IMG/VR virus record: IMGVR_UViG_3300021400_001287
Span: 27,209 to 91,208 of that record
Source of the DNA: a virus
Taxonomy: Duplodnaviria; Caudoviricetes
Length of the DNA stretch: 64,000 bases
Strand: one strand, 5' to 3'
This document shows, piece after piece, positions 22,949 to 56,769 of this stretch (position 1 is its first letter; every line of letters begins with the position of its first letter). The notes beneath the pieces were generated by a model. The model did no database searches. It was not told where the DNA came from and worked only from the letters and a program-made list of their open reading frames with translations. A program made the translations under genes and the position numbers.

Positions 22949-23028
22949 CGGGGCGTAGTAGAATTGGCATATACGGGGGACTCTAAATCTCCGCCGTTTT
23001 ATGGGTTCGAATCCCATCGCCCCGACCA
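22949..23028 (+). tRNA. Amber suppressor tRNA (anticodon CUA) with a tRNA-Leu-type body
   Basis: Acceptor CGGGGCG/CGCCCCG + A73 + CCA; D arm GTAG-AATTGGCAT-ATAC; anticodon arm GGGGA-CT CTA AA-TCTCC (CTA at 22983-22985); 8-nt variable region; T arm ATGGG-TTCGAAT-CCCAT. Confidence 0.95.
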
Positions 23029-52322: not shown

Positions 52323-52478
52323 ATGACCGCAGAAACGATTTACGCGATGCTGGCAGGGAAACTAACTCCTATGCTGAAAGATCTGACGACTGAAGCGTTA
52401 CAGCAAGACTTGGCCGATGTCGTGTCCGGTATCACGTTTACGATCAATAACGATATGGAACTGGAGGTCGAAATATAA
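52323..52478 (+). CDS. 51-aa tail-associated protein
   Basis: Coupled by TAATG to the next gene; ends ITFTINNDMELEVEI. Confidence 0.65.
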   Translation: MTAETIYAMLAGKLTPMLKDLTTEALQQDLADVVSGITFTINNDMELEVEI

Positions 52479-54559
52479 TGGCGACTGTGAATTTGGGACG
52501 AGTCGGTTTTGTGCCGAAGGGAGAATACGTTGCGGCGACAGCGTATGAAAAGTATGACATTGTGAGCTACAATGGCAGCAATTACGTGGCGTAGGTCGCG
52601 GTGACCGGCGTGACGCCGGGAACGGATGCCACCAAGTGGAAGCTCTTCATTGATAATTCGGCTGCTGCGGCGGCGACGACCGCCGCGAACACTGCTGCGA
52701 ATGCGGCTAATACGGCGGCTACCAATGCAACGAATGCGACCGGGTATATTGCCGATCCGTATGACGCTACGAAGACCTACGCCGTTGGCGACTACGTTAT
52801 CTACAATGGCAAACTGTATCGGTGCAATACTACCATTTCTACGGCTGAAGCGTGGACGGCGATGCACTGGACGGAGACGCAGGTGGGGGATGACGTTGGA
52901 GAGTTAAAGAGCGCTTTTTTAAATAAAGAACCTATTAACTGGTTTGATAAAACGACAGCAATTAATGGTAAAAATTTTAATTATTACGGTGATTTAAGTA
53001 CAAATGGTATAATGTTTGCCGCATATGTTCCAGTTTCAGCCGGCAAATATACTTTTCAAGTGTCGTACATAGATTTAGGCGGAAACGCAACAAGAATCCA
53101 CTTGTATGATGCGAACAAAGGATATCTATCTTCGGTTAATGGAACAGTGATAGGAGGATCGACTAATTACCCCATTATTACAATCGAAATCGCTAATGAA
53201 AGTGCAAAATTTATAGGAATAAGTTATCGCCTGAATGAAATAAATAATTTTATGGTTGTCAAAGGCGAAACGTATCCTGAAATATATTCCGAATATTTTG
53301 ATCCATTTTCGGAACTACACAATGTTACTGTGCGCCCGGAGGATGTTATCGGTTTAACTGATACATGTAAAATTGTAAACAATTTGCATGAAACTGTAAA
53401 TGATATTCTTGTATCATATTTGAACATTTTTAATCGAGCAAATATAAACACTCCCGGTTATTTGAATGGTGGAAACATTGTTGGCACATCAGGTGTTACA
53501 TATGATTACATTGAAATAACTCACTATGGTGAATATATTTCTAATTGCGTTGCAAAAACATTATATGGAAATGCGTATAATAACTGCGTTGCATTTTATA
53601 ATGCTGAAAAAACATATCTTCGTAATGCGGCAATAACAATAATCTCAGATAATGGGAATAATTCTGTCGGTACATTTAAAATTGAAAATGATGTAAAATA
53701 TATAAGAGTTACCATTTATTCTACAAACGTTGCTAATACGGCAATGATTGTATTTGGTACAACATTGCCTGATTACTATATTGATAATGGAGAAACAAAC
53801 GTTTCTACTGTTGACTTCATCGAATCAATTAAAGGGAATGTTCTTTTTGGCAAAACCGCTATTTTTGATGGTGATTCCATATGTGCGAGCAGTACGGACG
53901 TTAGTGGCAATGGAGCTTATGCGGGTAGAATTTCAGTTGCAAACGCCATGATTATCCATAACTATGCTGTTGGCGGTGGAACAATCACCAGTGAAACCTA
54001 TTCCGGATCTACTCCTAAACATTGGATAGTTGATAGCATTGATAGTGTATATAATGCTCACCCGGATGCTGATTATATTATACTTGAGGGTGGAACGAAT
54101 GATGCCGATGTTATCGGAAGCATCATTAATGGGAATACACCTGAACGGTTTGGCAGTTATAGCATGACCGATTTTTCTGGTGATTATGATGACGAAACGT
54201 TCTGCGGTGCAGTTGAATTGCTGATTTACAAGGCAATCAATTATTGGCCATCTAAGAAAATCGGTTTTGTTATTGCCATGAAAATGGGAAAAACGAGCAA
54301 CGGATATACGCCGGAAACTAACAACCGGAGGGCGTACTTTGAAACCATCATGGATATCTGCGATAAATGGGGTATCCCGTACCTGAATCTCTGGGATAAC
54401 TGTTACATGAATCCGAGCCTTGATGTGTGCTATGACAGCACGATGAGACCTCAAGAGAACGTTGCAGCTAATAAAATGTATCAAGATGGTCAGCATCCTG
54501 CCCCGAGGGGCTATGACTATATCGCACCGATAATCGGTGAGTGGATGAAAACGCTGTAA
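52478..54559 (+). CDS. Receptor-binding/tail fibre protein with a C-terminal SGNH hydrolase; TAG at 52592
   Basis: N-terminal 'NLGRV...YDIVSYNGSNYVA*' and CBM5/12-like 'YAVGDYVIYNGKLYRC'; SGNH blocks GDSI, GG, GGTND and DGQHP. Confidence 0.85.
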
Positions 54560-54755
54560 TGTAAAGGACACTTTAACTCTCTATCCCACCCATTGATAGG
54601 TGCAACAGCGGGAGAGAACTTGCTTCTCTCCCGTGATACTATTTTGACATTTAACAGACCGTTGCGAACGGTGCAAAAATGTTAATGACTTCTTGATAGT
54701 GTCGATGCTACATCTCCGTTTACAATAATGGCAACTACATACGGAGGTGTTTTCA

Positions 54756-55742
54756 ATGAGTATTGCGGCGAAGAGCACATTCATCAAGAACCTCTCCCAG
54801 AAGTTGGGCGACACGTTGACTGTCAATGAAATGTCCGCGTTGACTTCTGCATTGGCAGAAGAACTCAGTCAATTCGAGATGGAGCATAATTGCAATGACA
54901 AGCCGGACGTTGAAACTGGTGAATTGCTGGACGAGTTTCTGGCAGCGAAAGAAGTTGAAGGTAAGTCGCCGAAAACAATTGCTCACTACAAGTACATTCT
55001 GACCCGTATGTTCAAAGATATCGACCTTCCGATCCGCGATATCATGATATTCAGTCTGCGTCGATATCTTGCAAAACTCAAACAGCAAGGTATGCAGGAT
55101 GTCACAGTCGAAGGGATCCGTTCTATTATCTGCTCGTTCTTTGGGTGGGTGCATCGCGAGAATCTGATCGACATTAACCCTGCTGGGAATCTTGGGCCTA
55201 TCCGTTGCGAGAAAAAAGTTAAGAAGCCCCTGAGTAGTGTCGACATCGAGACGCTGAAAGAAAACTGTACGACAATTCGCGATAGAGCAATAGTGAGTTT
55301 GCTCCTGTCGACTGGATGCCGCATCAGTGAGATATGCGGGCTCAATCGGGACAGCATTGACTTCGCCAATTTGGAATGTGTCGTACTTGGGAAGGGAAAC
55401 AAGCAACGCACTGTGTTCATTGACGAAGTGACGGCGATGTTGGTGAAGCGATATTTGTTCTCGAGAGAAGATCAGTATGAAGCGCTATTCGTTGGCAAAG
55501 GTAGTAGCCGGCTCACTCCGGGCGGCATCCGGTTGATGCTCAACAAAGTAGCCAATGTTGCCGGTGTAGATCATGTTCATCCGCATCGCTTCCGGAGGAC
55601 ATTGGCAACGAATTTGGTCGACCACGGCATGCCGATCCAGGAAGTGGCAAACATTTTAGGGCACGACAAATTGGAGACGACCATGAAATATGTGTACGTG
55701 AACAAGACGAATGTTAAGAACGATTATCGAAAATATGCATAG
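54756..55742 (+). CDS. Tyrosine recombinase (XerD-like) next to the tail fibre
   Basis: 'TGCRISE', 'GKGNKQR', 'HPHRFRRT', 'LGH', 'TMKY'; ends at a TAG, with a TAA six codons later. Confidence 0.92.
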   Translation: MSIAAKSTFIKNLSQKLGDTLTVNEMSALTSALAEELSQFEMEHNCNDKPDVETGELLDEFLAAKEVEGKSPKTIAHYKYILTRMFKDIDLPIRDIMIFSLRRYLAKLKQQGMQDVTVEGIRSIICSFFGWVHRENLIDINPAGNLGPIRCEKKVKKPLSSVDIETLKENCTTIRDRAIVSLLLSTGCRISEICGLNRDSIDFANLECVVLGKGNKQRTVFIDEVTAMLVKRYLFSREDQYEALFVGKGSSRLTPGGIRLMLNKVANVAGVDHVHPHRFRRTLATNLVDHGMPIQEVANILGHDKLETTMKYVYVNKTNVKNDYRKYA

Positions 55743-55749
55743 GAGGATA

Positions 55750-56769
55750 ATGATGGATAAGATATTTACCTCCATTGACTATTGCGTCTGGCTGGAAGAC
55801 CAAGTTGCGGCCAAACGGCCGTATTGGTATGGTACGACTTTTCAGCCGTGTACGCAAGCGTAGTTGGACCGTAAGGCCAGACAGTATCCAGACCATTATA
55901 CCGCTAACAGAATGTATCGTTACGAAGCTGATATTCGGAACGAACAAATTTGCGGCGACTGTGTGGGCGGTGCTATCAAAGGTGCCGCGTGGACTGACCT
56001 AGGGCAGCACAAAGTCGTCTACGCGTCGAATGGTGTGCCAGATCGAAGTGCTGATGGTATGTTCAAGTATTGCAAATCCATTGGGGCTGAGTACGGCAAC
56101 ATTTCGACTATACCGGATCGACCAGGCATTGCTGTCAGAATGGCCGGGCACGTAGGTGTCTATGTTGGCAATGGCTACGTGGTTGAATGGCGGGGCTTTA
56201 AGTACGGTTGCGTAAAAACATAGCTCGAAGGTCGCGGGTGGACAGACTGGTATGAGTTGCCATGGGTCAATTATGGCGAAGCAGAGATCGAGCCCAACAA
56301 CGATGTGAAAGCAATTCTTGGCCGTCGACTACTGAAGGTGGGGCGCAAAGGTGACGATGTTGCTCTGCTTCAAGAGCTGCTCAATGAGCAAGGATTCGAT
56401 GCTGGTATCGTCGATGGGGAGTACGGTAAAAATACTCGCGACGCGGTGAGACGTCTCCAAGAAGCCGCTGGTATTGACGTAGATGGGCAATTCGGCGAAG
56501 AGAGCTTGAAGGCGCTGATGTCGTTGCTGGCAGAAAAGAATGTGGAAGACAATGTGACAACGGACGAAGAGAAACGGGTCGTCATCGTAACGGCGAGCCA
56601 TGCTGCGAATATCCGTGCCGGTGCGGGGACGAATTACCCCATTCTGACTGTGGCAAAATGTGGAACAAAGTTGCCATACGTTGCTGTAGCGGACAACGGC
56701 TGGTTTGCTGTTCAACTTGACGGGCAAATCGGCTGGATCAGCAATAAAATGGCGGAGCTGGGGGAATGA
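55750..56769 (+). CDS. Endolysin (NlpC/P60-like catalytic domain, PG-binding domain, SH3b); TAGs at 55861 and 56221
   Basis: 'PYWYG...DCVG...GHVGVYVGNG', 'GDDVALLQELL...DGEYGKNT', 'NIRAGAGTNY...GWIS'. Confidence 0.9.

Follow-up and report, generated by a model that had tools for sequence, protein, structure and literature searches.

The window analysed here, 64,000 nucleotides in length, forms the final part of a 91,208-bp IMG/VR virus record (IMGVR_UViG_3300021400_001287), which bears direct terminal repeats and comes from a gut-type temperate phage. In this window the distal part of a tail-fibre gene lies between two short inverted sites, hereafter L (left) and R (right), and is followed by the gene of an Xer-like tyrosine recombinase. 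In near-identical phage backbones the sequence between the two sites has repeatedly been replaced by unrelated sequence, and the arrangement observed in the window generalises to a conserved and widespread locus type. Judging from these comparisons, L and R are probably the sites of the adjacent recombinase, which would belong to the Rin family, and we hypothesize, more tentatively, that the segment between them is exchanged as a unit between phage genomes. The features concerned, with related loci designated L006, L007 and so on and GC standing for guanine plus cytosine content, are the following.

52478-54559, plus strand: tail-fibre gene, 693 codons with the TAG at 52592-52594 read through; TAA stop at 54557-54559
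52478-52898, plus strand: anchor part of the fibre, constant; L006, L007 and L251 share it at 85-95% nucleotide identity
52899-52917, plus strand: left site L, with outer arm GAGAG, core TTAAAG and centre AGCGC, in frame as E-L-K-S-A; core and centre at 52904-52914
52918-54562, plus strand: replaceable tip cassette, fibre residues 147-693; GC 0.37, and 0.32 in the first 900 bp
54563-54581, minus strand: right site R, GAGAG-TTAAAG-TGTCC-TTT; core and centre at 54566-54576
54608-54634, plus strand: hairpin resembling a terminator (11 pairs, then a T-rich tail); lies beyond the cassette and is conserved in L006/L007
54635-54755, plus strand: conserved recombinase leader; a promoter is inferred only, from a weak sigma-70-like match at 54651-54680
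54756-55742, plus strand: 328-aa Xer-like tyrosine recombinase with a SAM-like N domain and a catalytic domain

The original prediction called for a search of related phages for conserved flanks with unrelated inserts between the same two motifs, and such replacements were found in two independent lineages comprising five relatives. L006 and L007 are 95% identical to the window in the flanks, 97% in the upstream tail proteins, 98-99% in the recombinase and 98% in the lysin; nucleotide homology among the three stops at 52914-52917 and restarts at 54562-54566, and the intervening inserts, of 1.65, 2.26 and 1.70 kb, are unrelated. A fourth insert, of 2.24 kb and with five genes, occupies the space between the same two sites in L251, the flanks of which are 85% identical. 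In the other lineage, L246 and L248 encode an identical recombinase protein and share flanks of 98% identity, but have a BNR tip in one case and a GDSL tip in the other; on the left their homology breaks just past CTAAAGAGCGCT, and on the right the break is at the core of R. The GC of the cassettes is 0.37-0.50 regardless of that of the backbone, which ranges from 0.37 to 0.64. The same division is visible in the proteins. The fibre of the window consists of an N-terminal constant part with two CBM_5_12-like repeats and of a C-terminus with an SGNH/GDSL hydrolase domain; one group of its homologues has only the N-terminal 146 residues in common with it, up to ...GELKSA or ADLKSA, and then diverges, and a second group has only distal tip sequence in common. 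Cassettes do not always amount to a single tip, since those of L006 and L251 hold extra genes: a 101-aa nucleoside 2-deoxyribosyltransferase-like gene in the former (L006:5485-5790; phrog_355, 2e-13), and genes for a DUF6273 protein and an XkdX-like protein in the latter.

Both sites were recovered where they had been proposed. The left 19-nt site, GAGAGTTAAAG-AGCG-CTTT at 52899-52917 (+), lies in frame within the fibre as G-E-L-K-S-A-F, and the right site at 54563-54581, which reads GAGAGTTAAAG-TGTC-CTTT in reverse complement, is identical to it at 16/19 positions and starts 3 bp past the TAA stop of the fibre; likewise, GC falls from ~0.52 to ~0.31 (0.30-0.34) just past 52900. The AAAG-N4-CTTT dyad ascribed to each of them held in part, being common at the right sites of relatives, absent in some (e.g. 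L006) and weak at most left sites. Matches to the site are confined to L and R both in the window, where 0.09 are expected in shuffles, and in the entire 91,208-bp record. Viewed simply as an inverted repeat, the pair does not stand out from chance pairs in the same 8 kb, and its significance lies in its position and its conservation in relatives.

In these relatives the conserved left motif, LKSA in the protein, is TTAAAGAGCGC in the DNA, and the right site in reverse complement is TTAAAGTGTCC. Among loci fetched via the recombinase, and hence unbiased for the site, 7/9 fibre [DE]LKSA motifs are spelt TTAAAGAGCGC, a spelling for which codon usage predicts ~1.2%. Because it is kept across unrelated N-terminal domains, L is a DNA element and not merely a protein motif. 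Exact matches to the core number 24 in ~1.5 Mb of loci, against ~1.4 expected, and all of them stand at consistent positions. The right-site consensus, read from outer to inner, is ..tgA.-TTAAAG-TGTCC-TTTAAG; the site is often a true dyad, CTTAAAG-GACA-CTTTAAG, the inner arm of which abuts or includes the fibre stop codon, and its centre varies among phages (TGTCC, TGTTA, CCGAT, GTCAC, TCCGT). In at least 17 loci the distance between R and the recombinase start is 89-644 bp; in L010, where fibre and recombinase are convergent, R is found ~140 bp past the recombinase end. The 6 nt outside TTAAAG differ between phages and match between L and R within a phage: 63/90 positions agree, compared with 48.9 +/- 3.4 when permuted (0/20,000 as high, p<5e-5), and four loci reach 12/12 L-R identity. 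The perfect repeat common to L and R measures 11 nt in the window and 12-15 nt in L016, L177, L196, L198 and L217, and both cores are retained at an L-R identity of 7 nt or less in L007, L031, L173 and L246. A tandem duplication of ~450 bp inside the fibre gene has given L046 (at 4799 and 5255) and L189 (438 nt apart) two identical left sites each, in identical 25-aa contexts.

The gene following the fibre had been described as XerD-like and distinct from the integrase, which the profile matches bear out (Phage_integrase, PF00589, 1.3e-36; also PF13495/PF02899). The catalytic residues R189, H275-x-x-R278, H303 and Y312 are invariant in 32 homologues, and the protein has the attributes of an Xer-like (armless) recombinase, namely these residues and a SAM-like core-binding domain, with no lambda-type arm-binding domain. 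Its best solved relatives are XerC-like 4a8e, XerD 1a0p and XerA 5hxy, and with NF040815 ('tyrosine recombinase/integron integrase') it scores 222 bits, just over the cut-off of 220. Assignment as a chromosomal XerC/XerD was rejected, the scores being 174 bits against a cut-off of 335 for TIGR02224 and 143 against 330 for TIGR02225, and the gene phage-borne. An integron integrase was likewise discarded (TIGR02249, 53 bits against a cut-off of 265; the sites are 11-19 nt dyads and not attC structures), as was a fibre switch of the serine-invertase type (Gin/Cin/Min), the enzyme beside the fibre being a tyrosine recombinase. Homologues number more than 4,800 and are of nearly constant length, and related genes are found in rumen and gut genomes of Lachnospiraceae and other Clostridia. 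The gene order fibre, recombinase, lysin is conserved, even in L008, in which a large serine recombinase serves as integrase. GenBank phages gave no nucleotide match, and the best protein match there is 39% identical and annotated just 'integrase'; viral contigs yielded no close relatives when the query was the recombinase sequence alone, the 740-aa tail protein encoded upstream or the fibre, an alignment query being needed.

The family can be called Rin-like because its more distant members adjoin classic two-tip invertible segments. Homologues at 37-46% identity stand next to segments of 0.5-0.8 kb with perfect inverted repeats of 12-36 nt, and in 7/7 of those inspected two convergent tip open reading frames (ORFs) run through the repeats; these loci have every appearance of Rin-like two-tip switches. 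By comparison, all classifiable loci with a recombinase identity of at least 47% carry TTAAAG sites and a single long cassette. The more distant loci (L070-L073, L082-L085 and many of L099-L169) come from Lachnospiraceae and other gut genomes, and TTAAACACGAAG, TAAATAGCAATTTA and AAACTCCGCTTT are recurrent repeat families among them.

In the explanation that we favour, the recombinase, as a member of a family of tail-fibre tip invertases, would act on L and R, and these would delimit a replaceable receptor-binding cassette comprising the fibre tip and, in relatives, chaperone-like or accessory genes as well. The cassette would be exchanged between phage or prophage genomes within one cell, like with like, L recombining with L and R with R. 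Such an exchange would preserve the reading frame at E/D-L-K-S-A and leave the terminator and the recombinase gene outside the cassette, and the inverted orientation of the sites would turn an accidental L-by-R event into a reversible inversion and not a lethal deletion. From sequence comparison we infer that the recombinase binds and cuts L and R, where the crossover would fall, and that exchange prevails over inversion. That like-with-like exchange between co-resident genomes is the main outcome has, in our judgement, a chance somewhat short of even. It is favoured because replacement is repeated in near-identical backbones, because the GC of the cassette is independent of that of the backbone, because both cores are kept where L and R share 7 nt or less, which fits each site working with its own kind, because no inverted state is present among the contigs, metagenome matches and short proteins examined, and because of the two-core structure of L006. 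In this locus an extra accessory block lies between two direct R-type cores; the outer arm of R' is ACTTAC, as in an internal plus-strand site, and the outer arm of R is GAGAG, in common with L. A single R-by-R crossover with another DNA molecule that carried a matched pair of its own would be expected to leave this pattern, seen in one locus; L017 fits it less cleanly.

The exchange of cassettes at L and R had already been put forward in the original prediction, and its comparative side has stood: relatives switch at the motifs, the recombinase is conserved beside the right site and no inverted state was seen. The mechanistic argument is not established, as the claim that differing N4 cores forbid L-by-R recombination presumes a crossover in N4, which is unproven. 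Crossover may take place in the co-varying 6 nt outside TTAAAG; the pattern observed there is what an overlap region, or partner sites evolving in concert, would produce.

The points that weigh against like-with-like exchange as the main outcome fall under two alternatives. Firstly, an interaction of L with R is suggested by the agreement of the outer arms within each phage and by the homologues, which are invertases to judge by their context. Such an interaction would be in keeping with an ON/OFF inversion in which the recombinase flips the L-R segment, truncating the fibre to its anchor and a short LKCP... tail and so silencing the tip in part of the population, and in which cassette replacement is a by-product of ordinary recombination. 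The inverted orientation of L and R agrees with this, as does a repeat of 11-15 nt, which for most of the loci listed falls inside the 12-36 nt range of the two-tip homologues, and the match of the outer 6 nt is what one would expect if they formed an overlap region or if the partner sites were held similar. Nevertheless, several lineages keep both cores at the low L-R identity mentioned above, an OFF state would be without evident benefit to the virion, and the reverse in-frame reading offers no alternative tip in 23/23 loci, bearing out the earlier statement that simple inversion yields only a junk ORF. In the window, the product of inversion would be the anchor with a junk extension, LKCP..., of 19 codons, or 28 if TAG is read. 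The absence of a second cassette was also upheld, the two sites standing alone in the 91-kb genome with no stored alternative tip. The inverted junction TGTCC occurs in 0/57 viral contigs (searched as D-V-x-D/E-L-K followed by WGYSC), 48 having AGCGC and 7 AGTGC; the 14 matches returned by a scan of the metagenome collection for this junction are all unrelated zinc-finger genes; and among 32 truncated proteins with the fibre N-terminal part, none of the 16 examined ends in LKCP. On balance we hold an ON/OFF switch to be rather unlikely; inversion may occur at a low rate. A classic two-tip switch in the window was rejected as well, the minus-strand ORF at 53933-54571 being off the L-K frame and the in-frame reading ending at 19-28 codons. 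This antisense ORF of 212 codons lies in the SGNH-coding part and starts at the G of the right-site AAAG; it is probably spurious.

Secondly, homologous recombination in the conserved flanks, whether general or phage-encoded, may have moved the tips, producing a mosaic in which L would be the mere end of the anchor domain, and R and the recombinase would be otherwise employed (e.g. in autoregulation) or relics of an ancestral two-tip switch. Within the 24 nt to the left of L there are 7 mismatches between L007 and the window, the 18 nt to the right of R set the window apart from L006/L007, and L246 and L248 differ at 2/7 positions in the outer half of R; some exchange tracts thus ended 7-25 nt outside the cores (three junctions), as homologous recombination would also give. 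Moreover, any modular exchange would to some extent produce breaks at the sites, given that the last conserved motif of the fibre is L and the first conserved element downstream is R. Mosaicism extends into the cassette itself, where homology with P0003-P0005 begins near residue 290, and a tip search for whole cassettes on different backbones (n=66) returned only the pair L181/L027, in which the distal part alone is shared and the shared part does not start at L. Finally, matched L/R pairs around the fibre tips are kept by four phages rated complete (CheckV 100%) that lack a recombinase of the window's family, G001, G003, G004 and G005, and G005 is without any tyrosine recombinase; if the sites are recombinase substrates, these genomes imply that they are often served in trans. 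In the locus set the records in question are L173, L195 and L200 (G001, G003 and G004, respectively) and L203 (G005, 42,026 bp). What a mosaic of this origin leaves unexplained is that 11 nt of L are fixed at the nucleotide level across unrelated N-terminal domains, that a non-coding inverted copy with matching outer arms stands past the stop in dozens of phages, and that R lies beside the recombinase in both gene orientations. In addition, an identity of 11-16 nt is too short for efficient RecA-type exchange. We consider it unlikely that homologous recombination accounts for the locus.

The co-variation of the flanks, together with the complementarity of the two sites in the transcript, is also what an element acting in RNA would display, the L/R pair in late mRNA bracketing the tip-coding region for processing or stability with no relation to the recombinase. 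Such a helix would close a loop of 1.5-3.5 kb; mismatches compatible with G-U pairing amount to 6/27 against ~17% expected, which is no excess; the core variants TTAATG, TAAAAG and CTAAAG break the pairing; and the sites track the recombinase gene and not transcript ends. A role in RNA is accordingly regarded as most improbable.

Like-with-like exchange may, beyond the window, be the local form of a natural two-site exchange common to many otherwise unrelated phages of the Lachnospiraceae type from gut and rumen. With a shared pair of sites that differ in their centres, L in frame at D/E-LKSA and R past the cassette, these phages would draw receptor-binding modules, some of them multi-gene, from a communal pool without the need for flanking homology and with a Rin-family recombinase in cis or in trans; we offer this extension as a conjecture with roughly one chance in three. 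The host range of gut phages is set largely by fibre tips, and how tips move between dissimilar phages is poorly understood. If the sites are indeed substrates of the recombinase, they would provide a defined, portable and frame-keeping junction for swapping receptor-binding modules, which would explain sharp mosaic boundaries in Clostridia-class phages and constitute a route of host-range change distinct from inversion switches and diversity-generating retroelements. As to annotation, thousands of 328-aa genes labelled 'integrase/XerD' in Lachnospiraceae prophages are probably fibre-associated recombinases and not integrases.

Accessory blocks between direct right-type cores are found at L006:5795-6210 and L017:1437-2090, and also in L012 and L063. 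Their content is a minus-strand RHH gene of 63-67 aa, PF10723-like in L244/L246, and the block of L017 also has a Cys-rich ORF of 68 aa and a tRNA-like T-arm. A plus-strand TTAAAG site stands 65-75 nt from the recombinase-proximal core, and the right end is conserved, with AAYTTTGGSM before the GGACA core. Three roles seem conceivable for such a block: regulation of the recombinase, that of a mini-cassette with mobility of its own, or that of a very small promoter segment subject to inversion.

With regard to the genetic code, the window phage has in-frame TAG codons in most of its late genes and a tRNA with anticodon CTA, and TAG is for these reasons read as a sense codon. The fibre TAG at 52592-52594 (codon 39) corresponds to Leu at the equivalent position in the homologue P0014; neither the recombinase gene nor the tip cassette has a TAG codon. 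The tRNA and two further genes, which are given for context only, are located as follows.

22949-23028: tRNA, anticodon CTA
55753-56769, plus strand: endolysin, PG_binding_1 and SH3_3, with two in-frame TAG codons
57733-58893, minus strand: lambda-type integrase, the phage's separate integration enzyme

Among known systems, the Rin shufflon of Bifidobacterium dnaJ2-integrated prophages, the first phage tyrosine invertase reported (Mavrich et al. 2018, PMC6109161), likewise has a phage-encoded XerD-like (armless) tyrosine recombinase beside a receptor-binding protein gene, as is found in the window. Rin stores several Rv tips split by 11-bp rix sites, and flipped states have been seen, whereas the window system has a single cassette of 1.5-3.5 kb, in some cases comprising several genes; it stores no alternative, and no flipped state was seen among the contigs and proteins examined. 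Two or more stored C-terminal tips, and alternative inverted arrangements among related genomes, are features of Rin that were thus not observed for the window system. Variation lies within the genome in Rin and between genomes in the window system, and the two site sequences are unrelated (TTCCCTAACCC in Rin, TTAAAG-N5 in the window system). Literature searches led to the Rin paper and to nothing on single-cassette exchange. The integrons (IntI, attI, attC) also place a tyrosine recombinase beside an insertion point for exchangeable cassettes, and the extra blocks between direct copies of the R core in L006 and L017 are reminiscent of them; in contrast, the window system is without folded sites of the attC type and without a promoterless cassette array, and a structural gene continues in frame into its cassette. 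The pdif modules of Acinetobacter plasmids are gene modules flanked by inversely oriented XerC/XerD sites; like the present cassettes they occur in different backbones, many of their carriers have no recombinase of their own and their movement has been inferred from comparative data. They differ in that host XerC/D is thought to be used, the sites are 28-bp and dif-like and the modules carry resistance genes on plasmids, whereas the loci of the window system often have their own phage recombinase and their left site falls within a coding sequence, in frame. In the R64 shufflon, Rci acts on asymmetric sfx sites, with one conserved arm and spacer and one variable arm. There too an adhesin gene contains the sites, in frame and in its C-terminal part, and one segment has a single ORF; in contrast, the adhesin is a plasmid pilus tip (PilV), several segments invert in one molecule and the sites have a common spacer, whereas the centres of L and R always differ. 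The Mu G, P1 C, e14 P and p15B Min segments (named in PMC6109161) similarly have a constant fibre part outside a variable part bounded by inverted repeats. The Gin, Cin, Pin and Min systems have the recombinase gene adjacent and their cassettes can hold a fibre-assembly gene, but they are serine invertases that use an enhancer and Fis to alternate two opposed tips, while the window has a tyrosine recombinase and one tip. A formal parallel is engineered recombinase-mediated cassette exchange with heterospecific lox or FRT sites, in which two sites for the same recombinase, with different centres, flank a cassette, so that like sites can recombine between molecules and the flanking pair does not delete the insert; this is a laboratory design, and in the window the incompatibility of L with R and the crossover position are presumed only. 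Taken by its sequence, the locus would be a tyrosine-recombinase fibre-tip system with one replaceable cassette, its diversity residing in the population and not in the genome.

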